Part shown: positions 4,444 to 54,402 of the stretch, in pieces
How the letters are laid out: every line of letters starts with the position of its first letter
How positions within the stretch are numbered: position 1 is the first letter of the stretch
Assembly (NCBI GenBank): GCA_002373935.1
Contig: DFKW01000003.1
Coordinates: 10,498-74,497 of the forward strand
Length of the DNA: 64,000 nt
Reading direction: 5' to 3'
Source: Alphaproteobacteria bacterium UBA3635
GTDB taxonomy: Bacteria; Pseudomonadota; Alphaproteobacteria; Rs-D84
Program-made: the position numbers and the translations under genes
The notes under the pieces: model-generated
The model's input: the letters and a program-made list of their open reading frames with translations, nothing else
Told to the model about the DNA's origin: nothing
Databases searched by the model: none

Positions 4444-4450
4444 AAAAGTC

Positions 4451-4481
4451 CTTGCGTCAAAATTTTTATTTTTGCTAGCAT
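4451..4481 (+). promoter_or_regulatory. Candidate promoter of the 1313-aa surface protein gene
   Basis: CTTGCG-N17-GCTAGCAT. The same architecture and flanking sequence recur upstream of the paralog at 9020-9050. Confidence 0.4.
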
Positions 4482-4527
4482 TTCTAACAAGAAAGGATTT
4501 TTTTGAAAAAAGTCAGGAGGAACCATC

Positions 4528-19551: not shown

Positions 19552-20346
19552 ATGAAAAAAATATTTATGATTTTTTGTTGTGTTTGCATACTTGAAATAG
19601 TGCCTCGCACATGTTTTTCGATTGACTTATCAATGTCTGACCTTTTAACTTTAAGCGATGATGGTTATCACAATCGTGGCAGATGTACCATTCAAACAAA
19701 ATGCGAATCAGATGAAGAATATATACATACAAATGGCAAATGTTACATATCAGACGACGATGGTGGTGACACCTTTTGTGAAGATCAAGCTGTATGTATC
19801 CTAGGACGCACAGAAGAAAAAGAACACAGTAAAATCGATATAAACAGATGCTGGTATGCGATTACCGACGGCGACGATTATTGGTTGCTTATTGACAACA
19901 AGATACCTGACTGCCAAAAATATCCAAAAGCTCCAAATAAATATCCTGTTTTTTTAACAAATGATAATAAAATATTAAGTGATAACACCGGCAAAATAGC
20001 AAAATCTATTGTATCATCACAAAATTCTCGTTTGTGGCTGTTCGAGCAAAGGATTTCAAAGGAAGGATTTGAAAACCTAATGAACGAATACAATATTAAA
20101 TGCATTGCATATATTTCTGATAGCGATTTACCAAACAATGTATCCAGCGACGACGGTTCCGGTAACGGTCCCGGTGATGAACCTGATGATGGTGATAATT
20201 CTGGCGGCAGTGGTTCTGGGGATGAAACATCCGGTGGGGGCACCGCGCAACCCACACAACCCGACGATAAAAAAATCCATCGGCACACGGTTCAAACGTG
20301 GCTGGACGCATTGGATGCATATCGCGCCACATGTAAAAAACAATGA
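19552..20346 (+). CDS. Secreted Cys-rich hypothetical protein with G/D/S-rich tail (264 aa)
   Basis: The start lies 2 nt after the upstream stop. The signal peptide is MKKIFMIFCCVCILEIVPRTCFS. The first ~500 nt are visibly CpG-poor relative to neighbours. Confidence 0.65.
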   Translation: MKKIFMIFCCVCILEIVPRTCFSIDLSMSDLLTLSDDGYHNRGRCTIQTKCESDEEYIHTNGKCYISDDDGGDTFCEDQAVCILGRTEEKEHSKIDINRCWYAITDGDDYWLLIDNKIPDCQKYPKAPNKYPVFLTNDNKILSDNTGKIAKSIVSSQNSRLWLFEQRISKEGFENLMNEYNIKCIAYISDSDLPNNVSSDDGSGNGPGDEPDDGDNSGGSGSGDETSGGGTAQPTQPDDKKIHRHTVQTWLDALDAYRATCKKQ

Positions 20347-24374: not shown

Positions 24375-24557
24375 ATAAAACTCGTATGCTGCCATATGCC
24401 CCGCGCATACAAATGCGTTGCACATAATAACCTATTGCAACAAAAAAATCAACACTTTTTTATAATTTTTTTTATAAAACTTGGCAACTTATTATGAAAA
24501 AACAATGATAATTTGCTTGCCACGGTTTTCTGAAATTTGCTAAAATTTTTATCAGAT

Positions 24558-27335
24558 ATGAGAAGGATTGGAATAACACTGGTTTTCTGCTTGGTTTTCG
24601 TAACGGGCGGCATCGCCGCATCGCGCGTGCAGAACACGTCCCCAACAATGCGGGCGGCAACCACCACACAACGTGTAAAAACAAAAACTGTCGCATCACG
24701 TCCATCTGTGCGTGTTGCAACACAAAAAACAACCGGACGCGCCACATTACCTCAAACAAACACCACCGCCACACGCGCAACATCCCAACGGGGAACCAGC
24801 ACTGCACGCGCGGCAAATATTGCACGCGCCACGACCGACACACGCACGGGTGCCGAATACGAACAATGCAAAACCGCATATTTCGCGTGTATGGACCAAT
24901 TTTGCCAATTAAAGAACGACGAATATCGCCGCTGTTCATGCAGTGACCGCATAACATCATTGCAATCCGCGCGCGACAATCTGATACGCGCGGGCGAACA
25001 ATTGACGGCATTTAATGAAAACCTGGACATTGTGGGCAAAACCGCGGCCCAGGCCACGGCCATGAACACCGCATCCGACGGCGAATTGGCACTGATGCGC
25101 GACAAATCTGCATCCGCCGCATTATTGACCGCAATTATGAATTCCATCCGTGGTGACAACAGTCGCGTTGAAAACAACCAACTGTCTGATTTGAACAGTA
25201 TTGATTTATCTTTCGATGTCGCCAATTCTTTTGGCACCGCGGGCATCGGTCAAACCGTTGCGGCATATAACGGGCGCGCATTATATTCGGCGGTGTATCC
25301 ACAATGTCGCACGGCGGTCGCCACAAATTGTAATAACGCATCATTACAACGTGCGGTGAACGCATATTTAATGGCAATTGAACAAGATTGCAACACGGTT
25401 CAAACCGCCATCAACACAAAACAAAAGGAAACACACGCGGCAATCCGTGAAAGTGGTGCAATGCTGGATATGGCGCGCGCCGACAATCATCGCGCACATA
25501 ACTCTGACGATATCGCGACATGTATTGCAAACATTGAATCCGCCATACTCAGTGAAGAAGTTTGTGGCGCAAATTATCATAAATGCCTGGACAATGGTGA
25601 ATACATTGATGTTTCAACCGGCGCACCAATTGCTGGCGTGGTGGACTTCTATAAATTGGGAACAATGCTGACGTTCAGTGCGGGTCGCAACAACGCCGAA
25701 CAAAAATTGGCACAAAACCCAAACAACCGAACATTCGTCACGAACTTTGAAAAACGCGTCAAACAATTTGCCGAACCTGCATTGAACAAATGTTATGACG
25801 ACGCGGACACTGCATGGACCGATTATTTGAACAAGGCATTATTGGACATTTATTACGCCCAACAATCCAAGGTTGATGAAATAAAGCAGGGATGTTTTGA
25901 TTTTGTATCCGCGTGTTATATGAATGGATCAACCGCAATGACCAATGCAATGCAGGGCCTGGTTGCCGCACAAACAACCGTATTAAATCCAAATATATTA
26001 AATTTAAATCGCAGTTTATGTTCTGATTATATTGCGTCTTGCAATAATATGTTTGACGGCAATATTGTCCAAGATTACATTGCACATCGTCACGACACGG
26101 ATTCTTTGACCGCATGTCGCGCCGTTGTCCAACAATGCTTTGACAATTATGGCGGTCAAAATTACGAAAACTTTTACAACCCATCCAGTGGCCTGTTCGC
26201 ATCGGGCGATGCCCCAAAATGGTTTTCGTTATATGAATACGACGATGCTGGCAATAAAAAATCCGGATATGTATCCGAATGCGCAAAACAGTTGGCACAA
26301 ATCGACGCGTGCGCGGACAATATAGAAAAAGTTTTCGGTGGGTTTGATTATTACCCGACGGCCGGCATTTATGATAAATACAAATATAACGAACAACCAC
26401 GTGTATTACGTTCAACCGGTATCGCGACCGAGGTTTATAACCAAATCATCGACATATTACAAACCGGATGTGGCAACCTGGACGGAACATTTATGAATGT
26501 CCAAAACCTTGGACTATACAGTGCAAATTACAACAGCAATTCTTTTTGCACCGCAACATTTAACAACGAATCCAGTCGGTATTACCACCTGTACACAGAT
26601 TACAGTATTGGCAAAGAAGTAACATCTGTTGCCACCATCGGTCGCAAGTTATCTTTGGCAAGTGGACCAGGTCTGCAACCCGTAATATCATCCGGAACAA
26701 ATACAGGCGCCAATTTATCAATATGGCCCATTGAACAAACAACAAATACATACCCAGAAAACATGTGCCCACGTGATTATAATGCAAATGTTGATGTTCA
26801 ATCATGGGGCGCGTGCCTGTGTTGGGAAAACGGTGGCCGCCGCAGCAACAACGGCACCACAACGCGTTGTGTTGCAACGTTCCCGGCACAACCGTTGGTA
26901 AATTATCTGATTTCCAATACCATTGAACAAATAACAACCCCCGGATTAAACAACGAATGTTCTATTTCCGATACAAACACAAATAATTGGTATGTGACAA
27001 ATGCCAGCAACCCACAAAACCTGACACGAACAAACATGTTTATCAAATGGCCATACAGTGGAAATATTGCATCACCAACCGAACAAGATTGGTGCAACGC
27101 AAACATCAACAACAAAAACCAGGTCTGTCCATTTGGTGTCCATGTTGATACGAACGGCAATTGCAAGGAATGTCCCGAAAACTGGTTGGAATCAAATGGT
27201 ATCTGTTGTCCATCCGATTACACATACGATGGCAGCACACAAAAATGCACCAAAACAGAAAATGGCACCACATTGACCGTACCGGCACAAAAAACATCAT
27301 CTGAACTTATGGGCAATAATTTTCCTGATGGCTAA
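24558..27335 (+). CDS. Large secreted Cys-rich protein (925 aa) with T/R-rich N-terminal tract and C-terminal CxxCPEN module
   Basis: The ATG at 24558 gives the signal peptide MRRIGITLVFCLVFVTGGIAAS. There are many conserved Cys. The C-terminus is CPFGVHVDTNGNCKECPENWLESNGICCPSDY. No family recognised. Confidence 0.75.
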   Translation: MRRIGITLVFCLVFVTGGIAASRVQNTSPTMRAATTTQRVKTKTVASRPSVRVATQKTTGRATLPQTNTTATRATSQRGTSTARAANIARATTDTRTGAEYEQCKTAYFACMDQFCQLKNDEYRRCSCSDRITSLQSARDNLIRAGEQLTAFNENLDIVGKTAAQATAMNTASDGELALMRDKSASAALLTAIMNSIRGDNSRVENNQLSDLNSIDLSFDVANSFGTAGIGQTVAAYNGRALYSAVYPQCRTAVATNCNNASLQRAVNAYLMAIEQDCNTVQTAINTKQKETHAAIRESGAMLDMARADNHRAHNSDDIATCIANIESAILSEEVCGANYHKCLDNGEYIDVSTGAPIAGVVDFYKLGTMLTFSAGRNNAEQKLAQNPNNRTFVTNFEKRVKQFAEPALNKCYDDADTAWTDYLNKALLDIYYAQQSKVDEIKQGCFDFVSACYMNGSTAMTNAMQGLVAAQTTVLNPNILNLNRSLCSDYIASCNNMFDGNIVQDYIAHRHDTDSLTACRAVVQQCFDNYGGQNYENFYNPSSGLFASGDAPKWFSLYEYDDAGNKKSGYVSECAKQLAQIDACADNIEKVFGGFDYYPTAGIYDKYKYNEQPRVLRSTGIATEVYNQIIDILQTGCGNLDGTFMNVQNLGLYSANYNSNSFCTATFNNESSRYYHLYTDYSIGKEVTSVATIGRKLSLASGPGLQPVISSGTNTGANLSIWPIEQTTNTYPENMCPRDYNANVDVQSWGACLCWENGGRRSNNGTTTRCVATFPAQPLVNYLISNTIEQITTPGLNNECSISDTNTNNWYVTNASNPQNLTRTNMFIKWPYSGNIASPTEQDWCNANINNKNQVCPFGVHVDTNGNCKECPENWLESNGICCPSDYTYDGSTQKCTKTENGTTLTVPAQKTSSELMGNNFPDG

Positions 27336-34724: not shown

Positions 34725-37124
34725 TTATTTTTTTACAACAAAGTTAACCAATTTTTTTGGCACCACAATTGTTTTGATAATTGTTGCGCCATCCAATTGT
34801 TTGGTTGCGTTTTGTTTTGCCTGTTCCACCAAATCAGATTCGGCAATATCTACCGGGACAACAAAGTCACGCACGCGTTTGCCATTGACCGACACAACAA
34901 TTGTCATATCAAAATCCACCAATTTAGACGCGTCCGCCACCGGCCACGGTTCAAACACCAACATACCGGTATGCCCCATGCGTTCCCACATTTCTTCGGT
35001 TAAATGTGGTGCAAACGGATTCAACAATTGAATCAATACGGAATAGGCCGCCCGTGGCATTTTACCCCCAGGGAACGCATTGATAAATTCCATCATACCC
35101 GAAATTGCGGTATTAAATTTCATATTATCCAGCCGTTCCGTCACATCGGCAATCAAACGATTGACCAATTTTTCTTGGGATTCTGTCAACGCATCATCGG
35201 TCAAATTATCGGCAAATGCCTCGACACGCGATAAAAACCGTTGCACGCCGGCCAATGCACCATCCGTCCAAACGACATTGTTTTCCCACGGCCCCAGTGA
35301 CAAAACCGCAACACGTCCCGCATCGGCGCCGACACGTTCCAACAAATCAACAACCATAAATCCATTGCCGCGGGATTTAGACATCTTGTACCCATCCGAC
35401 CCCATCAGCAACCCTTGGGCGGTGCGTTTGGCATACGGTTCTGGGGTATTTACCAATCCCAAATCAAACAATGCGTGATGCCAAAAACGCGAATAAATCA
35501 AATGGCGAGTGTTATGTTCGTGCCCACCATTATAATGCGTGACCGGCATCCAATTTTTCATCTGTTCGCGAGAGCAAAATTCTTTATCGTTCTTTGGATC
35601 CAAATACCGCAAATAATACCACGAAGAACCCGCCCATCCCGGCATAGTATCCGTCTCACGTTGTGCGGCACCACCGCATTTTGGACATGTTGTATTTACC
35701 CAATCGGTGGCACGTGCCAACGGACTTTCGCCATCATCGGTTGGGCGATAATCTGTCATATACGGTTGCATCACCGGCAATTGATTATCCGGCACCGGTA
35801 CCCAACCGCATTTTTCACAATGCACCAGTGGTATAGGTTCGCCCCAATACATTTGACGTGAAAAACCCCAATCTTTTAATTTGTATTTTGTTGTGCCGCG
35901 CGCAAATCCGCGTTCGGTTCCATATTTAATCGCCGCCGCAATTGCATCCGCCTTGCCCATACCATCCAAGAACGATGAATTTATATGCGGTCCGTCGCCT
36001 TCCCAAACTTTATCGGGTTCACCACCCGCCAACACCGGGATAATTTCCAAACCAAATTTTTTTGCAAAATCCCAGTCACGCGAATCATGCGCCGGCACCG
36101 CCATAATTGTTCCAAACGCATAATCCACCAAAACATAGTCCGATGTAAAGATTGGAATTTCACGCCCCGTATACGGATTTATCGCGGTAACGCCTTCCAG
36201 TTTTATACCGGTTTTTTCACGCGTTGCGTCCGTTCTTTCAATTTCAGATTTTGCCGCAGATTGTTTGATATAATATTCCACCGCCGCCGCATTTGTGATG
36301 CGTCCATCGTTCAACCATTTGCGCAACAATTTATGCTCCGGCGCAATTACGCAAAATGTCACACCAAATATAGTATCAACACGCGTTGTATAAACCGTCA
36401 TAATATCGTCGCCAACACGAAAATCAACATCCGCGCCATACGATTTTCCAATCAGGTTTATTTCATCTTTTTTAATACGTTCATCAAAATCGACATCATT
36501 TAACCCATCTAACAATTTATCCGCATATTTCGACAGTGCCAAATTCCATTGTAATTTTTCTTTTTTTTCTATCAATCCGTGACAGCGCGGACATTTGTTA
36601 TCTTCCAATTCTTCGTTTGTAAATGTCGTTCTGCAATTCGGGCACCAATTCATGGGCAGGGCGGATTTATACGCCAACCCCGCATTAAAGAATTGAATAA
36701 ACATCCATTGTGTCCATTTGATATATTCCGGATCCGATGTCGCAACCCGTGTGTCCGGCGACACAGACCAACCAACCCGATCGATAACTTCTGAATAAGA
36801 TTTCACCAAATCACGCGCCACATCCGCCGGGTGCCGACCGATTTTTGTTGCATAATGTTCACCGGCAATTCCCATCGCATCAAAACCCATTGGGAATAAA
36901 ACATCATACCCCAAATGACGACGATAGCGCGCCAACACATCCATACCCGAATAATTCAACATATGCCCCGCATGCATACCCGCACCAGACAAGAAAGGAA
37001 ATTCAACCAAATTATAATAACGCGGGCGTGACCCGTCATTTTTTGGTACAAACGCGCGTGCATCGCGCCAACGGCGTTGCCATTTTGCCTCGCGTTCCAA
37101 AACTTTTTTCATATTGTCTGTCAT
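34725..37124 (-). CDS. leuS: Leucyl-tRNA synthetase
   Basis: 799 aa, class I. It has a HIGH-type motif (GMHAGHMLNY), a KMSKS motif (YKMSKSRGNG) and a CP1 editing insertion. Confidence 0.95.
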   Translation of the reverse strand: MTDNMKKVLEREAKWQRRWRDARAFVPKNDGSRPRYYNLVEFPFLSGAGMHAGHMLNYSGMDVLARYRRHLGYDVLFPMGFDAMGIAGEHYATKIGRHPADVARDLVKSYSEVIDRVGWSVSPDTRVATSDPEYIKWTQWMFIQFFNAGLAYKSALPMNWCPNCRTTFTNEELEDNKCPRCHGLIEKKEKLQWNLALSKYADKLLDGLNDVDFDERIKKDEINLIGKSYGADVDFRVGDDIMTVYTTRVDTIFGVTFCVIAPEHKLLRKWLNDGRITNAAAVEYYIKQSAAKSEIERTDATREKTGIKLEGVTAINPYTGREIPIFTSDYVLVDYAFGTIMAVPAHDSRDWDFAKKFGLEIIPVLAGGEPDKVWEGDGPHINSSFLDGMGKADAIAAAIKYGTERGFARGTTKYKLKDWGFSRQMYWGEPIPLVHCEKCGWVPVPDNQLPVMQPYMTDYRPTDDGESPLARATDWVNTTCPKCGGAAQRETDTMPGWAGSSWYYLRYLDPKNDKEFCSREQMKNWMPVTHYNGGHEHNTRHLIYSRFWHHALFDLGLVNTPEPYAKRTAQGLLMGSDGYKMSKSRGNGFMVVDLLERVGADAGRVAVLSLGPWENNVVWTDGALAGVQRFLSRVEAFADNLTDDALTESQEKLVNRLIADVTERLDNMKFNTAISGMMEFINAFPGGKMPRAAYSVLIQLLNPFAPHLTEEMWERMGHTGMLVFEPWPVADASKLVDFDMTIVVSVNGKRVRDFVVPVDIAESDLVEQAKQNATKQLDGATIIKTIVVPKKLVNFVVKK

Positions 37125-37234
37125 GATACATATCCTTTGTAAAAATTAAATCACAACCAATTTTATACAACAAACCCGCAAAATTCAAGCAAAAGAATAG
37201 GGCGCATCGCGCCCCACAAAACAATTTTTCAACA

Positions 37235-38086
37235 TCAGTTCACCCCGACCGTGAAATCGTCACCGTATGTTGCGACATCTTGACCGGCAATTGTGCATTT
37301 CAAACTTTCAAATCCACTTTTTATCTGATTCTTTTTAACAATTTTACTGGTAATAACACCACCGGTGGTTCCCAACACAACACCCGCAATTGAATCAGAT
37401 GCCAAACGCGCGGTATTAAAATTACCATCACTGTTTTTCCAAACATCACTGTAACGCGACACAAAATGTTTATCTAACATTTTATCCAATTCTGAAAAAT
37501 CAAACGCCGATTTTTGTGCCTCATCCCCATCAGTCGATTTAACAAGTTTGTCTTGATCTGGATTCCCCGGCACAATGACTCCATCTGCCACATCGCCATT
37601 TACGGCTTGACCTTGTTCACCTTGTCCGGCACCACCCGTTGACACTTTTGCTGCAGCCGACCGTTCTGTTTTTTTCTGACACCAGCCCCGGGAATTACCA
37701 TTTTTATCACGCGCCAGTTCATAACCATCCTCGCATTCGGTCGCAACACAGCGCAACATGTATTTGCCATCAATAAGTTCAGGCAATTTTATAACACTAT
37801 CAGGCCACTCATCACCACCAGTCATACCTGTATTGTCTTTATATTTCTTATAATATGCATCCGCAACAAACCTTTTACAAACCGCCTTGGTTGAATGATA
37901 ATTATGCGACCACCAATAATCTCTGGCCGAACAATCAGTATTATCATCATCCCAATAACCATCTGTACCAACACAATCCAAAATACCAACTGCATTTGGG
38001 TCATTTTTCATTACATCAGCCGCCCACGAATTTGTTGCGCATACAGCAACCATAATCATCACTGCAATTTTGTTAAATACCGACAT
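37235..38086 (-). CDS. Secreted Cys-containing hypothetical protein (283 aa)
   Basis: The ATG at 38086 follows GAGAGGGA. The signal peptide is MSVFNKIAVMIMVAVCATNSWA. The C-terminal Gly-rich hydrophobic module is shared with the 62716-64000 product. Confidence 0.6.
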   Translation of the reverse strand: MSVFNKIAVMIMVAVCATNSWAADVMKNDPNAVGILDCVGTDGYWDDDNTDCSARDYWWSHNYHSTKAVCKRFVADAYYKKYKDNTGMTGGDEWPDSVIKLPELIDGKYMLRCVATECEDGYELARDKNGNSRGWCQKKTERSAAAKVSTGGAGQGEQGQAVNGDVADGVIVPGNPDQDKLVKSTDGDEAQKSAFDFSELDKMLDKHFVSRYSDVWKNSDGNFNTARLASDSIAGVVLGTTGGVITSKIVKKNQIKSGFESLKCTIAGQDVATYGDDFTVGVN

Positions 38087-38693
38087 TTTATTCCCTCTCA
38101 CTTTTTGTTAATTTTATCACAAATCACGATTTTACACAAATGTTTTATACAAAAAACACGCCATTTTTGGGGCAGGAAAGGGCAAACACACAAAAAAATA
38201 CATCAAAAACCGCCACAAACCCGCAGAAATCCGCCATTTTTTGCAAATTTTACCGGCAAAGCAGGGCGATTTTTGCTTTTTTTGGACTTTTGGCACAAAT
38301 TCGACTATTTTTTATAAACACCAATATTTTACAATAAAACACATCCACATATTGCCGCGGCAAAAATTTCCCACACACATCAAAAAAATTAAAAAAATTC
38401 TAAAAAAATATAAAAATTTTTATTTATAAAATTCACACAACAAAAAATAATTTACACAGCAGCAAACCACGCCAACAACGCAGAATTCCGCCAAAATTAT
38501 GGGGACGGGTCAAACTTTCAAAAATCACAAAACTCGCCCTGCGCCCAGATTTCCGCGAAAAATTTGCAAATTCAAACAATCACAAAGCCACCAACAACCA
38601 CACACAAAAAAAATCACACAAAACACCAATCGATTCTGAGCGCGATAAATATCACAAACCATATAATTGGACGTTCAGGTCGCTGAAAAACCG

Positions 38694-38834
38694 TCAATAA
38701 ACTATATTATATGTTTGACCATTCCAAGTTAAATACCTTATCAGAGACGACAAACCGCCACCAAACAAAAACCAGAACACAAAACAGACAATAAGCAAAA
38801 TAACAAACAATCGCATAGTTGATATTCTTTTCAT
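38694..38834 (-). CDS. Possible 46-aa single-TM peptide (below the ORF-track cutoff)
   Basis: The translation is MKRISTMRLFVILLIVCFVFWFLFGGGLSSLIRYLTWNGQTYNIVY. AAGGA lies 8 nt upstream of the ATG. It is the only ORF with an RBS in the 1.25-kb gap. Confidence 0.3.
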   Translation of the reverse strand: MKRISTMRLFVILLIVCFVFWFLFGGGLSSLIRYLTWNGQTYNIVY

Positions 38835-38894
38835 CAAAAACATCCTTTTTATTAATTATACCACAAACAACAACCCCCATCAACTTTTTAGTCC

Positions 38895-39148
38895 GGTTAT
38901 ATTATGCCAGTCAGCAGGTACCGCAACCAACCGTGTTCGATTATATCCGGTTATATTATGTATAATTTCGTTGGCGTGAACACAAAACTCCTTGCAGTTA
39001 TATTATGTATAGTTTGCCCAAACGAGCATCAGCGAGTATGACAAATTATCTGGTTATATTATATATAGTTTCGTCGGTGTGAGCGTAGCGAATTTGTTGT
39101 TTTATATAAAACACAAAACTCCGTTCGGTTATATTATGTATAGTTTGC
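38895..39148 (+). repeat. Array of five direct ~20-nt half-dif repeats (GGTTATATTATGTATAGTTT)
   Basis: Copies start at 38895, 38949, 38997, 39052 and 39127. The units alternate between two sequence types (38949/39052 and 38997/39127). Each contains TTATGTATAGT, which is the putative XerD arm of the full site at 39176-39203, in the opposite orientation. Confidence 0.85.
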
Positions 39149-39175
39149 CCAAACGAGCATTAGCGAGTGTAGCAA

Positions 39176-39203
39176 ACTATACATAATATACATTATGCGC
39201 CTT
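39176..39203 (-). other. dif: Candidate dif site (XerC/XerD chromosome dimer resolution site)
   Basis: The minus strand reads AAGGCGCATAA-TGTATA-TTATGTATAGT. E. coli dif is GGTGCGCATAA-TGTATA-TTATGTTAAAT. That gives 8/11, 6/6 and 8/11 matches. Confidence 0.7.
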
Positions 39204-39350
39204 TTGTAAATCCAAATTACGCCACTATATTTATGACGACAACTTTATGACGGCAACCGCTCCCCCGGTTGCCCGTCACCCTATCACAAAAACACAAAAA
39301 AATCGCACGGCAAAAACGCCGCGCGACATAAAATATTTTCACTGCAAAAA

Positions 39351-39854
39351 TTATTTTTTAATTTTTGCAACTTTTTTAATCTTGCTGACGCCAACGCCCG
39401 CCAACTTGGTCAGATTTTTAACACCCTTTTCCAAATCACTCTCTTCCCCCGCGACATTTTCCACAGGTTTCACCGCAGAACAGCAATATGGGCATTTTGT
39501 TGCCGCATTACTGATTGTCGATTGGCAATACGGACACGCATGTGTCGTGACGGGCTGTTTTGATTTGGCCTTGGCCGCGATACGCACAACCAAGAACACC
39601 GCAAACATCGTAATCAAGAAACTGATAATCGAATTCAAAAATGCGCCAATACCAATCGCCGAATCCGCCCCCAGAACGATTTTCCAATCCGAAAAATCAA
39701 TTCCACCAATCAACAACCCAATCGGCGGCATCATAACATCTTTGACCAACGAATTGACAACCGCAGTCATCACCGACCCAACGATGATACCGACCGCCAT
39801 ATCAATCGCATTACCACGATTTATAAACGACTTAAAGTCCTTGATCATACCCAT
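39351..39854 (-). CDS. mscL: Large-conductance mechanosensitive channel with C-terminal CPYC..CPYC extension
   Basis: The N-terminus (IKDFKSFINRGNAIDMAVGIIVGSVMTAVVNSLVKDVMMPPIG) is canonical MscL. The protein is 167 aa because of the extra tail. Confidence 0.9.
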   Translation of the reverse strand: MGMIKDFKSFINRGNAIDMAVGIIVGSVMTAVVNSLVKDVMMPPIGLLIGGIDFSDWKIVLGADSAIGIGAFLNSIISFLITMFAVFLVVRIAAKAKSKQPVTTHACPYCQSTISNAATKCPYCCSAVKPVENVAGEESDLEKGVKNLTKLAGVGVSKIKKVAKIKK

Positions 39855-39857
39855 TTT

Positions 39858-40445
39858 TTACTCCTTTTTTGTTTTGTTTTGTTTATTTTCGCGCACCGCC
39901 GCCTTTTGATATTGCGCGACCGCACGCAGAACCGCATTTAATGTTTTACGCAAACTTTCGTCATGCGTTTCGACCATAATATTTGCCATCGCGTATGTAT
40001 CATACCGTTCTTTTATCAGTTGCGATAAAATCACCCTGCTGTCGTTATTTAACAACTGGGGGCGTGTATTTCTGTGATTTGTGCGTTTAACCAACAAATC
40101 CAAATCCGCCTTGAGCCAAATACTGATTGCATTTTTCAGCACCATATCGCGCACCGCCGGTGTAATAAACGCGCCCTCGCCCGTGGAAATCACCTTTATC
40201 CGGGGCTTTGCATCCAACAACCGTTCAATCACAGATGTTTCCGCACGACGAAATTCTTGTTCACCATACATTGAAAAAATATCAACCACGGACGCACCGG
40301 CGGCGGCCTCAATCTCGGAATCAGAATCAACAAAATCAACACCCAACGCGCGCGCCAACGCACGCCCAACGGACGTTTTGCCCGCCCCCATCAAACCAAC
40401 CATAACAATTGGTTTATCTAAAATAATTTTCGGTGTCCGTACCAT
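39858..40445 (-). CDS. aroK: Shikimate kinase
   Basis: P-loop VGLMGAGKTSVGRALA plus a FVDSDSEIE motif. 195 aa. Confidence 0.87.
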   Translation of the reverse strand: MVRTPKIILDKPIVMVGLMGAGKTSVGRALARALGVDFVDSDSEIEAAAGASVVDIFSMYGEQEFRRAETSVIERLLDAKPRIKVISTGEGAFITPAVRDMVLKNAISIWLKADLDLLVKRTNHRNTRPQLLNNDSRVILSQLIKERYDTYAMANIMVETHDESLRKTLNAVLRAVAQYQKAAVRENKQNKTKKE

Positions 40446-47333: not shown

Positions 47334-47459
47334 ATTTTTCCCTCTGTTTACAGATAATATAGACAAAAAACACAAAAAGTCAAGCAGTAATACAAATTTT
47401 TATTTGAAACCGAGTCAAAAATCCGCTATAAATACCCCGCATAAAAAAAAGGAAAATGG

Positions 47460-48038
47460 ATGAATAAATTAGTATTGATGATGGGTGGCCAAGGTTCCGG
47501 CAAGGGAACAATGTCCAAAAAATTACTGGAAACAAACAAAAACTTTACATATATCGAAACCGGTGCGATGTTGCGCGCTCTGCCTGAAAATTCACCGTTG
47601 CGTGCGATGATTGCGCGTGGTGAAATGGTGCCTGATTCAGAAGTGTGCAAATTGCTGGAATCTAAAATCACATCGGCACCACGGGACGTATTATTGGATG
47701 GTTTTCCCCGCAAATTGACCCAGGCCCAGTGGTTGATAAACACATTTGGCGACAAATTTGCGACCATTGCGGTGTATTTGAACATCCCAGAAACCCTGAT
47801 GTTAAAACGAATTCAAAATCGCATAACCGAGGGCGCCGGCCGTGCCGATGACGCGGACAGCGCGGCGGTTCGTCGCAGGTTAGATACATTTATGCACGAA
47901 ACAATTCCGGCGATAAATTGGTTGCGAACTGCAAAAAATGTTAAATTTTTAGAAATCCCGATTGCGGACACAACAATTGATGCGAATTACGCAACATTGA
48001 CAAACATATTGACCGCAAATAACGTATTATCACGATAA
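47460..48038 (+). CDS. adk: Adenylate kinase (short-lid type)
   Basis: P-loop GGQGSGKGT and an LLDGFPR motif. At 192 aa it lacks a Cys4 lid. Confidence 0.87.
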   Translation: MNKLVLMMGGQGSGKGTMSKKLLETNKNFTYIETGAMLRALPENSPLRAMIARGEMVPDSEVCKLLESKITSAPRDVLLDGFPRKLTQAQWLINTFGDKFATIAVYLNIPETLMLKRIQNRITEGAGRADDADSAAVRRRLDTFMHETIPAINWLRTAKNVKFLEIPIADTTIDANYATLTNILTANNVLSR

Positions 48039-48165
48039 GTCGTCATCCCGGCGCAGGCCGGGATCCAGTTTTGCGGAACGCAAAACTTGCGTCATAAAAG
48101 CAAAAATTACACAAGTTTGCGCCAACGGCGCAAACTGGATACCGCCCTGCGGCGGTATGACGGCG
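48039..48165. repeat. MITE/REP-like palindromic element (~127 bp)
   Basis: The terminal inverted modules are GTCATCCCGGCGCAGGCCGGGATCCAGTTTTGCG and CGCAAACTGGATACCGCCCTGCGGCGGTATGAC. There are also internal hairpins. Confidence 0.6.
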
Positions 48166-48181
48166 CGGCACGCCGTTGTAC

Positions 48182-48214
48182 AAAAAACACCCCGAGTTAT
48201 CGGGGTGTTTTTTT
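48182..48214. terminator. Bidirectional terminator (adk / tail-fibre-like gene)
   Basis: AAAAAACACCCCGA-GTTA-TCGGGGTGTTTTTTT. Confidence 0.75.
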
Positions 48215-48295
48215 GATTTTATCTGGCAAGGCCTTTTTCTGATTGGGAGTTGGTTTCGGGGCCACCAAATAAAATCAAAAGGCATTAATCGAATA

Positions 48296-50068
48296 TTATT
48301 CCGATAATCCAAACACCGCAGAGCGGAACGACGCGCGAGCACGGACGTAGAGCACGCAGCTGTACGCACAGTTGTACGCACAATCGGCGGCCGGACTGCT
48401 CGCGCCGTTGAAGACCCACGCAGAGGACGACGGATTTACAGGGTATACATCCCCGTTTGCAGCCGTTCCATCCGCACCCGGAACACCAACCGCCGTCATC
48501 TTGCACCAGCAGTTTTTAAAGTTTTCCCGCGGATAGTTTGCATTATCCGTTTGACCCACCGGTGCCGGCAATTCATAGAACGCGGCCTCTTGCACCGATG
48601 TCAATTTTGTGGCAAATGTCCCCGCCACAGACGTGCATTTTGCAATGCCATATACCGCGCCCGCATCGATATCGCCCTCGGTGCCATCCCACTCAACCGC
48701 CCAAGAACCCGCGTTTTCTAAATCACCCGCGGGCAGTGTTTGATACATGCCGCCAACCGTGCGGGCGGGCGATGCCACCGTCCATTGACGCGAATAGACA
48801 TCCATGCTGCCGTCGATGTATGTTTTGCGGAAATCCGGGTTACCCTGCCACCGGCGGAAATCGACGCCACCATCGACAAGTTGTCCGTTTGGGTTTGTTT
48901 TGAAAAATGCCTCCATCCAGCGGTTTATTGGGTCGAATATTTCGTACCAATGGGGTTTGCCGTCGGTCCCCTCGACCAGCAGGCATTTTTTGCCGGCGGG
49001 GCATTTTTCATTGTCGTCCGCAATGTCGTTTGGGCGGGTTTGCTTGCCCGATTGCAATGTCGCAATGCTCGCCGCCTGGGTAATCGTTTGGGTCACGACA
49101 GAATCCACCACAGAAATTGCATTGGACAACATTAAATCCAATGGTTCAAATTGTGTATTTGTATATTTTGTTGTTGCAACATTAATGCCTGTGCACGCAG
49201 GCGTAAATTCTGTGGCGGTGTTGCCTTTTTCTAATTGCATATGGGAATAAATAATACCGTTTGCAATGGTCGGGTTTGCCGATATAACATCCATAGAAAA
49301 TGTATATTGCGTGTTTGGCTCGCATGGGAAAACGGATGTTCCAGAGTTTATGCGTTCCCCGTTGTTGTAAAAACGACAAGATGTTGTATTTTCTGGGGTT
49401 GTAAATGTGCATTTAACATTATTTTCTGGTCCAGAAAAATTGCGTGCACAACCACTATGTACAGGTGTATCGCTACCTGATTTTATGATTTGTATTATAA
49501 ATTGTGCATACCTTCTGGTATCTGGGTCGGTGCTGACAATTGTTCCGGTTGATTCATACCATTTTGAACCCTCTAAAATCATTGGTGTGGACAACAAATT
49601 TCGACATGGGTCTACGCAATTCGCATCGTATGGTGTGTATGCGGTTACGGTCGTGCCACGTTCGATTTGAATATAAGACAATTGAATACTACCACTATTA
49701 CTATTTCCGAAATTCACATAACCAATGGTTTTTCCGGCACTACTTGTGTGTAAAAAATCTCCATCAATACCAAATGGCAGCATTTCGGAAGTACCATCAG
49801 TATAACCAATTGTAAATCTTGCATTGGCAGAATTTGCCCCAACATGACCACTGAACGTGTATTGGGTGTTTGCGGCGAACGTTAACGGAAAATGCTTACC
49901 GCCACTGGCGTATGTTGACCACATTGAGTCAGCAGGGCCGCTGTAAACATCGCCGTTTTTCGTCCAATTGGGCGCATTTAATAACCAATCCATATCGAAT
50001 AAATTGCAAGCCGCATTGGCCGATATACTGAACAACAGACCCAACAACCCAAACAATATTTTTCTCAT
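48296..50068 (-). CDS. Secreted protein with two beta-sandwich modules resembling phage receptor-binding/tail-fibre proteins (590 aa)
   Basis: The ATG at 50068 follows GGGGAGAAAG. The signal peptide is MRKILFGLLGLLFSISANA. Two modules end in IQIERGTTVTAYTPY and MQLEKGNTATEFTP. The C-terminal domain is Cys-rich. Confidence 0.7.
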   Translation of the reverse strand: MRKILFGLLGLLFSISANAACNLFDMDWLLNAPNWTKNGDVYSGPADSMWSTYASGGKHFPLTFAANTQYTFSGHVGANSANARFTIGYTDGTSEMLPFGIDGDFLHTSSAGKTIGYVNFGNSNSGSIQLSYIQIERGTTVTAYTPYDANCVDPCRNLLSTPMILEGSKWYESTGTIVSTDPDTRRYAQFIIQIIKSGSDTPVHSGCARNFSGPENNVKCTFTTPENTTSCRFYNNGERINSGTSVFPCEPNTQYTFSMDVISANPTIANGIIYSHMQLEKGNTATEFTPACTGINVATTKYTNTQFEPLDLMLSNAISVVDSVVTQTITQAASIATLQSGKQTRPNDIADDNEKCPAGKKCLLVEGTDGKPHWYEIFDPINRWMEAFFKTNPNGQLVDGGVDFRRWQGNPDFRKTYIDGSMDVYSRQWTVASPARTVGGMYQTLPAGDLENAGSWAVEWDGTEGDIDAGAVYGIAKCTSVAGTFATKLTSVQEAAFYELPAPVGQTDNANYPRENFKNCWCKMTAVGVPGADGTAANGDVYPVNPSSSAWVFNGASSPAADCAYNCAYSCVLYVRARASFRSAVFGLSE

Positions 50069-50123
50069 GTTCTTTCTCCCCGTTCTTTTGGTTCTGCGTT
50101 TTTCTATTTTCGCGATTGCAAAA

Positions 50124-50150
50124 ATAAAAAAACCGCTGGGAATCCAACGG
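50124..50150 (-). terminator. Terminator-like hairpin in the 5' region of the tail-fibre-like gene
   Basis: The minus strand reads CCGTTGG-ATTC-CCAGCGG followed by TTTTTTT. It lies 55 nt upstream of the ATG at 50068. Confidence 0.5.
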
Positions 50151-50289
50151 GAATACGGCCGGGGTGTTAGCAAATCAATTGAACGATGATTCCACGGGCG
50201 TTTCTATCCGACACCGCGGCACCCCGACGAAACATAATTTCGTTTCAGGGTTTATCACATGGGAAAAATCCACATTTATAAATCCGGGT

Positions 50290-50456
50290 AATTTTTTACC
50301 GACGATAAATAAATGTCGGTGCAAAAAATGAAATGCAACAAACACAACCCCACCGAATCGAATCGGTTATGGGTCGGGAGAGTTACGATGCAAATCTTGC
50401 ACCGGTTCAATAAGGCCTGCTAAAGCCACCGGAATCCAACTCCCTTAGTTTTTTTT
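50290..50456 (+). ncRNA. Candidate structured small RNA (5' end uncertain)
   Basis: Two hairpins lie at 50304-50326 and 50361-50376. A three-way junction at 50376-50444 has closing stem GGGAG(A)GTT/AACTCCC and arms TGCAA-ATC-TTGCA and CCGGT...ACCGG. A T8 run follows at 50449-50456. No plus-strand gene lies upstream. Confidence 0.3.
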
Positions 50457-50536
50457 GGATTCACATTTGCATTATAGAAAAAAATTTTTTGCGTGTGCAA
50501 TATTTTTTTGCACTGCCCCACCGCAACCCTCTCGGA

Positions 50537-50885
50537 TATTCCCCTTCTTTATGAAAGAAGGGGGGGACCACCGAAGGTGGTGGGGTAGTTGTGAAAATAA
50601 TTTAACTGCCCCGTCACTCAACCACTATCGTGGTTTCGTGCCACCCCTTCTTTTCCGCTGGCGCGGTAAAAGACGGGGAATGTCCAGCGGGTTTTCCCGC
50701 CGTCTCCTTCTTTATGAAAGAAGGAGTACCCGAGCAAGCATTAGCGCGCGAGGGGGAGGTAATTGTGATTCAAAACCTTTTTATGGCGATTTCGTTTCAC
50801 TACATCGCCGGGCACAATTACCCCGTCTGGCTTCGCCATCCACCCCTTCTTTCATAAAGAAGGGGACGGACCACCGGTCCCCCTC
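50537..50885. repeat. Cluster of nested palindromic (REP-like) repeats
   Basis: CCCCTTCTTT-ATGA-AAGAAGGGG occurs at ~50541, a variant CTCCTTCTTTATGAAAGAAGGAG at ~50705 and CCCCTTCTTTCATAAAGAAGGGG at ~50833. There are also GGACCACC..GGTGG modules and a 10-bp inverted repeat GGTAATTGTG/CACAATTACC at 50758-50821. Confidence 0.75.
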
Positions 50886-50995
50886 CCCAATGGGGCGGAA
50901 TCAAAAAACCGGGGGATGCCTGGTTTTTTGTTGCAAACCCTTGCATTTCGGGAAAAAATATGATAAAATCACACAGATATATAAAGGGTTATTTG

Positions 50996-51988
50996 ATGTC
51001 TGAAAAAATTATTTTAACCGGTATTAAACCAACCGGTATGCCGCATATTGGAAACTATATCGGTGCATTAAAACCGTTGATTGAAAATTCCCGGCACAAT
51101 AAAACTGTTGTTTTTATTGCGGATTTGCACGCATTGAACTCTATCCACGATGCAAAAACAATTAAACAGCATACCTATGAAATCGCGGCGCTGTTGATTT
51201 CGATGGGTTTGGATATGAACAATGCGATTTTGTTTCGGCAATCTGATATTGATGCGGTGTATAAATTAAATACCCTGTTAATGAACATCACGCCCAAGGG
51301 ATTGATGAATCGCGCCCATTCTTACAAGGCCATGTTGGAAAAAAATGCCGCCGCGGGTGATGATATGGATGCGGGTGTAAATATGGGTTTATATACATAT
51401 CCAATTTTGATGTCTGCCGATATTTTGTTATACAATACCGACATTGTTCCCGTTGGTGCCGACCAAAAACAACATGTCGAATTTGCACGCGACATCGCGG
51501 AATATTTTAATCGGACATACGGCAACCTGTTCCGGTTGCCCGAACCCCAGATTGGCGCGGACGCCGGTTTGGTCCCCGGTTTGGACGGTCGTAAAATGAG
51601 TAAATCTTATGACAACACAATTCCATTATTTGCCGATGCACCAACATTAAAAAAACTTGTTATGCGCATCATCACCGACAGTAAATTACCGAACGAGCCA
51701 AAAAATCCGGATGAATCTACGATATTTTTGTTGTATAAACATTTTGCAAATGACGCGGATGTTGCAAATTTGCGCCGACTGTTTGAAAACGGCGAAATCG
51801 GTTATGGCGATGCGAAAAAAATGCTGTTCAATGCGATAGATGCGCAACTTGCCGCGCCACGCGAAAAATATAAATCTTTAATGTCGCACACGGACGAATT
51901 GGATGAAATTTTGGCAACGGGTGCCGCGCGCGCACGCAAAATTGCCAACAATACAATCGAACGCGTCATGCGTGCAATGCTGGGGTAA
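50996..51988 (+). CDS. trpS: Tryptophanyl-tRNA synthetase
   Basis: 330 aa. The HIGH-type motif is GMPHIGNYIGA and the KMSKS motif is GRKMSKSY. The ORF is trimmed to the ATG at 50996. Confidence 0.92.
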   Translation: MSEKIILTGIKPTGMPHIGNYIGALKPLIENSRHNKTVVFIADLHALNSIHDAKTIKQHTYEIAALLISMGLDMNNAILFRQSDIDAVYKLNTLLMNITPKGLMNRAHSYKAMLEKNAAAGDDMDAGVNMGLYTYPILMSADILLYNTDIVPVGADQKQHVEFARDIAEYFNRTYGNLFRLPEPQIGADAGLVPGLDGRKMSKSYDNTIPLFADAPTLKKLVMRIITDSKLPNEPKNPDESTIFLLYKHFANDADVANLRRLFENGEIGYGDAKKMLFNAIDAQLAAPREKYKSLMSHTDELDEILATGAARARKIANNTIERVMRAMLG

Positions 51989-52012
51989 AAAAAAGAACAA
52001 GGGAGAGAGAAT

Positions 52013-52738
52013 ATGAAACAATCAACACTGTGGATTATCGGAATTATTTTGGCTTTATTGGGTTATAATTTTATAACCCCGGTGACGCCACGCACAATTA
52101 CAACAACGGGTGAATGCCTGACCACGGCGCCACGCGACCGGACGGCGATTACCCTGCGTGTCACAACGTTGGATAAAAACGCATTGAAATCTATGCGTGA
52201 TGCAACGGCGCGGGTTGCCGAAATAAATGCGTATTTGGAAAACCTGGATGTGAAAACGCAAACCACTGAATTTAATTCGTATGAAAAGACCGAGTGGAAT
52301 CATGCCACACAAAAATCAATAAATTTGGGCACTGAAACCACCATCGCGATTGAGGTTTCGTCCGACAATATGGATATAATCGAACAGATTTTGAACCAAT
52401 TCGCCGGCCAGGAAAATATCTATGTTGGAAACCTGCAAATGTTCACATCGGCCGAAACATTGCAACCAATTGTCCAAGATTGTATGTCTGCGGCGGTTGA
52501 AAATGCACGCGCACGCGCGACCGCATTGGCGGCGGGTGACAATTCGTATGTTGGAAAAATGTTGTCTGTGTCGTATGGTGCGGGCGGTAATGTTGTGGCG
52601 CCAACCGCAAACTATCGATTGATGGCATCAATGGCCAAGGCCGAAACGATGGATGCCGGTGCCGGCGCGTTTGGAACGTTGTCTGCACGAGACACAAATG
52701 TTTCGGTGTCTGTTTCTGCCACATTTGAAATAAAGTAA
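52013..52738 (+). CDS. SIMPL-domain (DUF541) periplasmic protein
   Basis: 241 aa with an N-terminal anchor or signal. The layout and the A.ENARARATALAA..G..VGK motif are typical of SIMPL/26-kDa periplasmic immunogenic proteins. Confidence 0.55.
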   Translation: MKQSTLWIIGIILALLGYNFITPVTPRTITTTGECLTTAPRDRTAITLRVTTLDKNALKSMRDATARVAEINAYLENLDVKTQTTEFNSYEKTEWNHATQKSINLGTETTIAIEVSSDNMDIIEQILNQFAGQENIYVGNLQMFTSAETLQPIVQDCMSAAVENARARATALAAGDNSYVGKMLSVSYGAGGNVVAPTANYRLMASMAKAETMDAGAGAFGTLSARDTNVSVSVSATFEIK

Positions 52739-52739
52739 A

Positions 52740-53663
52740 ATGAACGAAATTATTGCGGATTTTATAAATTATTTATTAAACACAAAAAATTATTCGACGC
52801 ATACGGCGACGGCGTATGAATCTGATTTGCACGATTTTGCGTCGTTTTATGCACGATGGTCGGGAACAACACCCATGGCGAACGATTTGTCGCGCATTGA
52901 CACAATCGCGTTTCGCGCATGGTTGGCGGATCGCGCACGGCGCAAAATGGAACATAAATCAACCGCACGCGCACTGTCCGCCGTTCGCAGTTTTTACAAA
53001 TACATCGCAAAAAAATACGATATTCAAAATGACGCAATCGGACTGATATCGGCACCACGCGTTCCGCGCAAATTATCCAAGGCCATTGATGCACATGATG
53101 TATCCGATATGCACGGCGCGATTAATGTGATTGACAATAAAAATCCATGGATTGCCGCACGCGATTGGGCATTGGTGGTATTACTGTTTGGATGCGGTCT
53201 GCGCATATCCGAGGCATTGGCCCTGCGTCAACGGGATTTTGCATCGCGCCCCGACACACTGCGCATCATGGGCAAGGGTCAAAAAGAACGGATTGTGCCC
53301 GTCCTGGCGGCGGTGAACGATGCGGTTGCAAAATACATTGCCACCTGCCCTTATGCCGGCGATGAAACAAAACCATTGTTCCGCAGTGTTCGCGGTTTGC
53401 CAATGACGGCGCGTATGGCGGAAAAAGTTGTTGAAAACCTGCGCACATATTTACAGTTGCCCGATTACGTGACACCACACGCTCTGCGACACTCTTTTGC
53501 GACGGCATTATTGGCGGGCGGCGCTGATTTACGCAGTTTGCAAGAATTATTGGGCCACGCATCATTGTCCACGACCCAAATTTATACCCGTGTCAATATG
53601 GCGGAAATAAACGATATTTACACCCACGCCCACCCTTTTGCACACACCGATAACAACAAATAA
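52740..53663 (+). CDS. Tyrosine recombinase, XerC/XerD family
   Basis: 307 aa. Motifs are ARDWALVVLLFGCGLRISEAL and HALRHSFATALLAGGADLRSLQELLGHASLSTTQIYT (R..HxxR..Y catalytic set). Confidence 0.85.
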   Translation: MNEIIADFINYLLNTKNYSTHTATAYESDLHDFASFYARWSGTTPMANDLSRIDTIAFRAWLADRARRKMEHKSTARALSAVRSFYKYIAKKYDIQNDAIGLISAPRVPRKLSKAIDAHDVSDMHGAINVIDNKNPWIAARDWALVVLLFGCGLRISEALALRQRDFASRPDTLRIMGKGQKERIVPVLAAVNDAVAKYIATCPYAGDETKPLFRSVRGLPMTARMAEKVVENLRTYLQLPDYVTPHALRHSFATALLAGGADLRSLQELLGHASLSTTQIYTRVNMAEINDIYTHAHPFAHTDNNK

Positions 53664-53688
53664 AAACCGCCAAAATGGCGGTTTTTGT
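53662..53688. terminator. Bidirectional terminator (xer / rpsD)
   Basis: AAAAACCGCC-AAAAT-GGCGGTTTTTG. Confidence 0.7.
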
Positions 53689-53705
53689 TTCGAATATATT
53701 CCCGA

Positions 53706-54338
53706 TTACCGAGAATAAAATTCGACGACCAATTCCGGTGACATTTGCACGGGGTACGGAACATCTGCGAACGCAGGCACGCGAACAAATGTCGCGGTAA
53801 AGTTCGCACTGTCAACATTAACATAGTCACAGAAATTGCGTTCACCCGATTCCAATGCCAACACAACCAACGGCATTTGTTTTGCTTTCTCGCTGACGGT
53901 GATGACATCACCCGGATTGACACGATATGATGGAATTTTCACGCGTTTGCCGTTCACCATAATGTGACCGTGGTTAATCAATTGACGCGATGAAAATACG
54001 GTTGGCGCCAATTTTGCACGATACACAACGGCATCCAAACGACGTTCCAACAAACCAATCAAATTATCCGGAGTATCGCCGCGCATATTGTCGGCCTCGG
54101 CATAATATTTGTGGAATTTCTTTTCGCCAATATTGCCGTAATAACCCTTTAATGTTTGTTTTGCGCGCATCTGTTGTGCGTATGCAGAATTGTTTCCACC
54201 GCGGGATGTTGGTCCATGTTGACCCGGTTTATATTTGCGTTTGTTAAACGGGGATTTTGCCTGGCCCCACAGGTTCACACCCAAAGAACGGGCGATTTTT
54301 AATTTACGTGTGCTACGTTTTGCACCGGCTCTTGCCAT
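53706..54338 (-). CDS. rpsD: 30S ribosomal protein S4
   Basis: 210 aa with an S4 N-terminal region. The S4 RNA-binding domain is LERRLDAVVYRAKLAPTVFSSRQLINHGHIMVNGKRV. Confidence 0.93.
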   Translation of the reverse strand: MARAGAKRSTRKLKIARSLGVNLWGQAKSPFNKRKYKPGQHGPTSRGGNNSAYAQQMRAKQTLKGYYGNIGEKKFHKYYAEADNMRGDTPDNLIGLLERRLDAVVYRAKLAPTVFSSRQLINHGHIMVNGKRVKIPSYRVNPGDVITVSEKAKQMPLVVLALESGERNFCDYVNVDSANFTATFVRVPAFADVPYPVQMSPELVVEFYSR

Positions 54339-54402
54339 AATTAATCCTTTTATTTTTTGGTTTTTATTGTGCCGGATGTTTCACAGAATCCTTATCGCGG
54401 AC

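Follow-up and report, generated by a model that had tools for sequence, protein, structure and literature searches.

Polar satellite copies of the XerD arm around a dif-type Xer site in the Candidatus Enterousia clade

Introduction

What is represented by a row of one-armed repeats lying beside a sequence that resembles the Xer recombination site dif? The question is raised by a 64,000-nucleotide stretch (referred to here as the window) of contig DFKW01000003.1 from Alphaproteobacteria bacterium UBA3635, in which a 28-bp dif-like site is accompanied by repeated copies of its XerD arm. The original prediction, made from the letters of the window, read this locus as the replication terminus, carrying scars or modules of Xer-exploiting elements or else an array that titrates XerD. 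We compared the locus with those of related genomes, metagenome stretches and viral contigs, the individual loci being given L numbers. The half-sites of the window exemplify a satellite system that is found across the clade, is polar and is specific to the XerD arm, and the 28-mer is most suitably classed as a Xer recombination site of dif type, its assignment to the terminus not being supported. Several readings of different probability are weighed for the mechanism of the satellite system.

A dif-type Xer site conserved upstream of leuS

The dif site of Escherichia coli is GGTGCGCATAATGTATATTATGTTAAAT, with arms GGTGCGCATAA and TTATGTTAAAT around the center TGTATA. Read directly from the minus strand, positions 39176 to 39203 of the window give AAGGCGCATAATGTATATTATGTATAGT, which consists of a XerC-type arm (AAGGCGCATAA), the center TGTATA and a XerD-type arm (TTATGTATAGT). 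Direct comparison with E. coli dif gave 22 matches in 28 positions, divided 8/11, 6/6 and 8/11 over arm, center and arm as had been predicted, and including 20 consecutive identical bases. The 28-mer was found once in the window, in non-coding, AT-rich DNA.

The site was assessed by the dif criteria of Carnoy and Roten 2009 (PMC2731167). A 25-mer core, with up to 2 mismatches allowed, was present in 53 of approximately 74 loci of the clade, nearly always upstream of leuS and in the same orientation. LeuS identity among the 50 site-bearing species is 67 to 91%. In 50 loci, every position of the 28-mer is at least 90% conserved except position 7 (C or T) and position 13, the most variable of all, and conservation outside the 28-mer drops to 30 to 40% within approximately 10 nt. 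Position 13 is also the most variable position of proteobacterial dif (PMC2731167). The flank on the XerC side (39204 to 39212, minus strand, consensus GATATACAA) is 50 to 70% conserved and is also present on a phage copy of the site described below. The exact 28-mer occurs in at least 119 metagenome stretches, with one match in each contig listed, including contigs of 851, 595 and 558 kb; this single-copy count is of exact matches only. The DNA separating the full site from leuS ranges from 0.45 to 8 kb among species and contains tig, rpsI, rplM, a tlyA-like gene, glycosyltransferases, a methylase and hypothetical open reading frames (ORFs).

Judged by these sequence properties, the 28-mer behaves as a real Xer-type site would, conserved at the genus to family level. 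It resembles chromosomal dif in its 28-bp length and 11-6-11 layout, its 22 matches, its AT-rich non-coding position, its conservation across strains and species and its variable position 13, and the genome encodes a recombinase of the Xer family. Its standing as a Xer site is independent of any claim about the terminus.

XerD half-sites and a hairpin in the window

The half-sites, all of them on the plus strand and located past the XerD arm of the full site, were scored against GGTTATATTATGTATAGTTT. The one nearest the full site, half-site 5 (39127 to 39146), matches at 20/20 and consists of the XerD arm plus TATA of the center, inverted relative to the full site. Half-sites 4 (39052 to 39071), 3 (38997 to 39016) and 2 (38949 to 38968) each match at 19/20. 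Five direct copies had been proposed; four are good half-sites, whereas the fifth, half-site 1 (38895 to 38914), has decayed to 12/20 and retains only GGTTATATTATG. Successive half-sites are spaced by 54, 47 to 48, 55 to 56 and 75 nt. The array far exceeds chance, as the 15-mer TATATTATGTATAGT, with up to 2 mismatches, occurs five times in the window, always at this locus, when shuffled sequences are expected to hold 0.08 copies and none of 100 shuffles reached five.

The repeats are embedded in a duplicated two-unit block (38944 to 39180, plus strand) in which two types of unit alternate. The type-A units (38979 to 39049 and 39110 to 39180) are 89% identical over 71 nt, and the type-B units (38944 to 38979 and 39047 to 39082) are 86% identical over 36 nt, which confirms the alternation and block duplication noticed originally. 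The half-site is the sole sequence common to the two types.

Half-site 5 and the full site can pair as a hairpin or cruciform (39130 to 39190, not assigned to a strand). The predicted perfect 19-bp inverted repeat is present, with arms at 39130 to 39148 and 39172 to 39190 and a 23-nt loop. Its stem comprises 4 nt of the center, the XerD arm and 4 nt of flank, leaving the XerC arm unpaired. This hairpin is the only stable element in single-strand folds of the region; beyond it, the array folds no better than shuffled sequences (z = -2.2 and -1.6).

Other identities for the array were considered. A CRISPR-like array was rejected because the spacers are homologous to one another, and Tandem Repeats Finder makes no call on the array because its units are heterogeneous. 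Read as promoters, the AT-rich half-sites give weak consensus matches only. Rfam returns sub-threshold matches at 39289 to 39379 only and none in the array, so that a known RNA was also rejected.

Satellite arms are specific to XerD and polar across the clade

Extra arms were counted within 1.5 kb of the full site in 170 loci, with up to 1 mismatch in 11 nt. All 126 inverted XerD arms lie on the XerD side and none on the XerC side, and the 32 direct XerD arms are divided into 28 on the XerC side and 4 on the XerD side. Matches to the XerC arm, mostly chance ones with one mismatch, comprised 2 direct copies (one on each side) and 7 inverted copies (6 on the XerD side and 1 on the XerC side). 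There are thus 158 extra XerD arms versus 9 XerC-arm-like matches, and in 154 of the 158 satellites the outer (TAGT) end faces the full site, a polarity rule that is clearly testable in vitro. The pattern holds separately in the set with one genome per species and in the metagenome set. Over the 600 nt past the XerD arm, the 8-nt core of the arm occurs at 2.1 copies per kb in inverted orientation, compared with 0.03 in direct orientation and a background of 0.12. XerD-arm specificity and strict polarity are thus shown for the extra copies. A shufflon-type inversion system was rejected, as one orientation pattern was seen at every locus and no inverted states were found.

Inverted copies are absent from 42 loci, and there is one copy in 27 loci, two in 16, three in 2, four in 1 and five in 3. 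The variation in unit number that the original prediction expected between relatives is therefore seen, and the window lies at the high end of this distribution. Several lineages, including L014, L022, L034 and L076, possess tandem arrays of their own with unrelated spacers. The arrays are thus shown to grow and shrink quickly.

In 22 of 60 loci, the full site and the first inverted copy pair in a perfect stem of 12 bp or more, which starts at the TATA of the center. The extension of this stem past the arm varies by species yet stays complementary (TTTGC/GCAAA in the window and TTTGGG/CCCAAA in L008); the stem reaches 23 bp with a 5-nt loop in L060 and is a perfect 21 bp in L073. In some loci a distal inverted arm lies 380 to 660 nt off, beyond an AT-rich module. 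On the other side, 12 species have a direct XerD arm just past the mscL terminator, followed by 235 to 600 bp and then the full site; this interval contains an ORF for a membrane protein of approximately 60 residues in two cases, and its left junction has no XerC arm.

Constraint was gauged on satellites detected through nothing but the 8-nt core. Beyond this core, four arm positions are 70 to 90% conserved, two are relaxed, and three T's of the flank are again 70 to 90% conserved, beyond which the flanks fall to 30 to 40%. Spacers show no relationship from one species to another, nor do those of the two unit types of the window, yet the arm is kept.

In the window itself, the XerC side has a weak XerD-arm-like sequence, ATAAATATAGT (39224 to 39234, minus strand, 8/11), which is in direct orientation and 21 nt away from the full site. 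Its polarity is that of the XerC-side satellites of other species, and it may be a chance match.

The site does not coincide with a GC-skew switch

The terminus assignment was examined through GC skew, whose cumulative curve is monotonic over the window. The replication component of skew was separated from that of transcription by comparing genes on the two strands. For this strand-asymmetric component, the values left and right of the full site are -0.15 and -0.09, and it is still negative in the 9 kb past the left end of the window, as represented by argS-bearing contigs. In approximately 45 related species, with their sites co-oriented, the component within 10 kb is +0.116 to the left of the site, as measured in 31 loci, and +0.120 to the right, as measured in 43 loci, with zero flips. 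The same absence of a flip was observed at the site locus L153 of the 851-kb contig. Judged by the refuting condition set in the original prediction, the terminus reading thus fails in the visible DNA, there being no skew switch at the site either in the window or in the relatives. A perfectly conserved, single-copy dif-like site may lie off the skew switch, a caution for dif prediction.

The site of L153 (OIXQ01000001.1, 851,330 bp) lies at approximately 421.85 kb, which is 49.6% of the length of this near-genome-length contig. That position would be appropriate for a terminus in a contig whose ends mark the origin, although the local skew speaks against this.

Satellites as candidate polar landing pads for XerD

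We tentatively favor, while giving it somewhat less than an even chance, the reading that the 28-mer is the genuine dif-type Xer site of the Candidatus Enterousia-clade chromosome and that the satellites are XerD landing pads serving as polar stops, a modified form of the XerD-array alternative in the original prediction. The satellites would bind XerD without XerC, and a translocase (FtsK, possibly SMC) would pass them inward and be hindered on leaving. XerD on a dif half-site stops FtsK approximately 5-fold better from the outer face (PMC2800217), and one-way passage is proposed because the block acts mainly from that face. The outcome would be a small one-way trap, or a reservoir of XerD, around the recombination site. 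To give the first inverted copy, the XerD arm and its flank would most likely have been duplicated in fold-back (inverted) fashion, and tandem duplication would have added the later copies. We infer the landing-pad role by analogy with the precedents of PMC2800217 and PMC11840125. If the satellites do bind XerD, they would be a natural case of one dif arm multiplied and oriented around its site, and this would bear on the control of Xer, FtsK and SMC where terminus cues may be weak, as in genomes below 1 Mb whose site does not lie at the skew switch.

Several observations weigh against this reading. Approximately 45% of the related loci have no satellite at all, which makes the satellites dispensable. 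Position 25 of the site, in the XerD arm, is T, where an A is usually conserved in dif (PMC2731167). No XerD gene was seen in the window, whose only Xer gene is a XerC-like one scoring below the curated cut-off, and neither XerD nor the FtsK gamma domain was seen in the DNA examined here. The orientation-corrected skew keeps one sign from approximately -48 kb to +25 kb around the site, so that any switch is 25 kb or more from the site on one side and 48 kb or more on the other; published distances from dif to the skew maximum have a median of 7.3 kb, a third quartile of 21 kb and a maximum of 200 kb (PMC2731167). This off-switch position is awkward for an FtsK-guided chromosomal dif or for any terminus-linked role. 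In the constant skew, the T at position 25, the unseen XerD and FtsK gamma sequences and the polar satellites, the locus differs from chromosomal dif. Finally, fold-back and tandem duplication alone would give functionless inverted copies on the XerD side, and the arms could owe their conservation to a recent origin or to gene conversion among the repeats.

The last two points are the core of a somewhat unlikely alternative, in which the satellites are functionless mutational by-products. A quasi-palindromic, AT-rich site would provoke template switching that yields a fold-back copy of the XerD arm, followed by hairpin-promoted slippage and tandem duplication, and the arms would look conserved because the copies are young or homogenized by gene conversion. 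The copy number, which ranges from 0 to 5 and is not constant among relatives 80 to 91% identical, is in keeping with this, as are the lineage-specific tandem repeats of L014, L022 and L076, the simple block duplication in the window and the first inverted copy, which nearly always lies 32 to 46 nt from the arm as a perfect hairpin with an extension matching by descent. However, mutation of this kind leaves unexplained why the XerD arm alone is copied and never the XerC arm, why distal inverted arms occur 380 to 660 nt off across unrelated sequence and why direct copies stand 235 to 600 nt away on the XerC side in 12 species. Nor does it account for the same 15 to 20 nt being retained by two unit types with unrelated spacers.

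The recurrent hairpin suggests a further possibility, to which we give the slimmest chance of all, that the hairpin itself is the functional unit. It would be a folded single-stranded DNA substrate, like the phage attachment site (attP) of CTX phage or the attC site of integrons, with the full site in the role of attI. The succession of site, short loop and inverted XerD arm does correspond to a folded attP of CTX type in its XerD-proximal half, the stems show co-variation between species, and a complete inverted site-like copy exists in L214. Nevertheless, the XerC arm is unpaired in all but 1 of 170 loci, units beyond the first form weak stems, and no cassette genes are present.

L214 is the sole locus of the 170 in which an inverted copy has a XerC-like arm (AAGGCGTATAA-CAGTAT-CTTATGTATTGT). 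This copy lies approximately 18 nt from the full site, in a geometry that resembles the attP1/attP2 pair of CTX phage.

The landing-pad reading can be extended to the whole region, in a form that we consider unlikely. Here the inward-facing, XerD-only half-sites would make up a miniature polar trap and, together with the motif GGCGGATTTCTGCGG, a new organizer of the dif region. With similar reservation, such a trap may be imagined to hold FtsK or SMC, or to concentrate XerD, at a dimer-resolution site lying off the skew switch, with a Tus/Ter-like logic built from a recombinase arm. The motif lies on the minus strand of the window at 38221 to 38235, with a weaker second copy on that strand at 38478 to 38492. 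Of 174 same-strand copies in loci L011 to L084 and L138 to L256, 171 are confined to the interval from -500 to +1000 nt around the site; the motif is nearly absent from the remaining flanking sequence. It is usually preceded by GCCCTATTCTG approximately 35 nt upstream and by an A-run, and it has no match in Rfam. The motif marks the locus as a specialized region. The Tus-Ter trap and polar FtsK stops (PMC2800217) likewise place two opposed groups of polar sites on the flanks of a center; the likeness is one of analogy only, as the scale here is hundreds of base pairs and not hundreds of kilobases.

The original prediction knew of no described equivalent of a one-armed dif array, which was too strong in view of two described systems (PMC11840125; PMC12715192). 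In Bacillus subtilis, XerD-only dif-like sites (XDS) unload SMC (Karaboja et al. 2021, as related in PMC11840125), and an artificial XDS array is described there as blocking SMC (PMC11840125). From that account, XDS and the satellites alike are XerD-arm sites that lack a working XerC-type arm, exist in several copies and are associated with dif. The XDS of the original study are reportedly spread over hundreds of kilobases, unlike the putative XerD sites described here, which lie within approximately 0.7 kb of the full site, are strictly oriented, number from 0 to 5 and are often in tandem. The second system is the one-armed attP of integrative mobile elements exploiting Xer (IMEX), considered in the next section. 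These two are the nearest described relatives, and the satellite system fits neither. No description of a tight, polar cluster of XerD arms around dif was found in the searchable literature.

Phages carrying the same site

The same 28-mer is carried by a phage. In IMGVR_UViG_3300028832_000331 (L131, 9201 to 9228), AAGGCGCATAATTTATATTATGTATAGT is identical to the host 28-mer and is accompanied by the moderately conserved left flank, so that phage and chromosome share approximately 40 nt. The phage contig is 37,789 bp long, and a 41-mer from its end recurs at positions 87 to 127, giving a 142-bp terminal overlap and hence a complete circular genome. The site lies in non-coding DNA between a leftward block of early genes (VapE-like, AAA_24, YopX and ERCC4) and a rightward block of late genes, which include those for a large terminase subunit and a major head protein and identify a tailed phage. 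No integrase was found in positions 7,013 to 37,789, the part scanned, or beside the site.

In a sister phage (L132), whose large terminase subunit is 99% identical and whose DNA is approximately 97% identical over 8.6 kb, the spot of the 28-mer (approximately 3380 to 3410) is occupied instead by another dif-like 28-mer, AGAGCGCACAACCATAGGTTGAATAGTT. A more distant phage (L135, 8616 to 8663) carries AAGGCGCATAACATGTATTATGTATACT followed by a second, direct XerD arm. Motifs of the dif type in non-coding phage DNA are the signature of passive, XerCD-mediated lysogeny (PMC7062461; PMC12715192). Taken together, the arrangements in the three phages suggest that they carry swappable, host-matched Xer attachment sites. 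We infer phage integration at the chromosomal site rather than observe it, because no lysogen was found among 190 loci. The comparison points to tailed phages as carriers of such sites, most described Xer-exploiters being filamentous phages, microviruses and double jelly-roll (DJR) phages.

Among viral contigs, 21 of 22 matches to the half-site were rejected as chance matches in unrelated AT-rich viruses, and a scan for the full site matched mostly other taxa with GCGYATAATATATATTATGTATAAY. Three contigs (L118, L128 and L129; GC approximately 0.35, from another AT-rich host group) contain dif-like pairs 6 nt apart, GCGCATAATATATATTATGTATAAT then GCGCATAATAAACGTTATGTATAAT, an arrangement reminiscent of classical IMEX junctions or of double attP sites.

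The existence of a phage with the identical 28-mer, in whose positions 7,013 to 37,789 no integrase was found, bears on an improbable alternative, that the satellites are junction scars or mini-cassettes of IMEX-like elements with a one-armed attP made of the XerD arm. Each unit, or each module of approximately 450 bp, would on this improbable account be a remnant between direct repeats of the XerD arm. A one-armed 17-bp attP of Vibrio DJR phages has been described, as have tandem IMEX arrays (PMC12715192), modules of 250 to 600 bp, some with an ORF of approximately 60 codons, lie here between two XerD arms of the same orientation, and the site-leuS DNA varies in length among species. The locus shares with IMEX (CTX, VGJ and TLC phages, gokushoviruses and Vibrio DJR phages) a half-dif beside a full dif, a matching phage site and variable adjacent DNA. 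However, standard Xer junctions are direct with respect to dif, with the chromosomal XerC arm at the left junction, whereas the XerD-side copies here are inverted (126/126), the wrong orientation for junctions, and the XerC-side copies lack a XerC arm. The units of the window, 47 to 75 bp with 30 to 55 nt between successive copies, hold no element genes; no phage or plasmid genes lie between sites in other loci, where the variable DNA consists of housekeeping and miscellaneous genes; no lysogen was found among the 190 loci; and the phage is tailed. The scar interpretation that was first put forward for the window is not sustained by these features.

Acinetobacter pdif modules offer a looser parallel, being short modules bounded by Xer-type sites, some of them inverted; theirs are complete XerC/D and XerD/C sites on plasmids, whereas only XerD arms are repeated here and the locus is chromosomal. 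A pdif module was rejected, as there is one complete site per locus and no plasmid match. More broadly, a plasmid or pdif origin was rejected on the lack of a match in PLSDB and the housekeeping character of the neighboring genes.

The phage copy also raises the prospect, which we regard as very improbable, that the 28-mer is not used by the host Xer system and is instead the attachment core of a phage recombinase or the operator of another protein, its likeness to dif being inherited or coincidental. The position of the site off the skew switch, the approximately 40 nt shared with the phage and the 3.8 kb of phage genome that went unseen (positions 3,197 to 7,012) would allow for this. Against it stand the 20 consecutive bases identical to E. 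coli dif with the two-arm architecture, the Xer-family gene in the window, the lack of an integrase in the scanned part of the phage or beside its site and the occurrence of the site in most species irrespective of prophage.

Genomic setting and recombinase gene

The locus lies between mscL (39351 to 39854, minus strand) and leuS (34725 to 37124, minus strand), with the intrinsic terminator of mscL (39302 to 39327, minus strand) on the XerC side of the full site; further neighbors are aroK, prfA, hisS, lpxA/B and gcrA. Positions 37001 to 39900, the stretch compared, are identical to the sheep-rumen scaffold L001. In the set with one genome per species, the relatives by LeuS are uncultured Alphaproteobacteria from rumen and gut, many of them Candidatus Enterousia, a clade with genomes below approximately 1 Mb (PMC12306168).

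The Xer gene of the window (52740 to 53663, plus strand) lies 13.5 kb from the full site and encodes a XerC-like tyrosine recombinase of 307 residues. The protein scores 291 bits with the TIGR02224 XerC model, below the curated cut-off of 335, and 234 bits with the XerD model. A tblastn comparison of this region with an E. coli XerD query gave 33% identity (E = 1e-36).

Just past the array, an ORF for a hydrophobic protein of 49 residues (38694 to 38843, minus strand) is preceded by a strong promoter-like site (38883 to 38855) with a TG-extended -10 element; it is present in L001 and L003 and missing from L002, L004, L005 and L006. Small hydrophobic ORFs (49 to approximately 60 residues) with strong promoter-like sites recur beside the Xer site, on different sides by species; those of L024 and L076 are on the XerC side, between a satellite XerD arm and the full site. 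An ORF of 288 residues without a family match (37235 to 38101, minus strand) is present, with approximately 1 kb of DNA, in the window and in L001. Loci L002 to L006 have approximately 66 bp in its place, an accessory indel beside leuS.

Elsewhere in the window, four very large ORFs have no Pfam match, namely, 4528 to 8469 (1313 residues), 9096 to 14480 (1794), 15042 to 17243 (733) and 24537 to 27335 (932), which is unusual for a genome below 1 Mb. An ORF of 982 residues (20343 to 23291) has a GH108 lysozyme-like domain at its C terminus only. The segment from approximately 47400 to 54400, which contains adk, a 625-residue ORF, trpS, the xerC-like gene and rpsD, does not show the strand-asymmetric GC skew of the remaining window and may be a locally rearranged or acquired segment.

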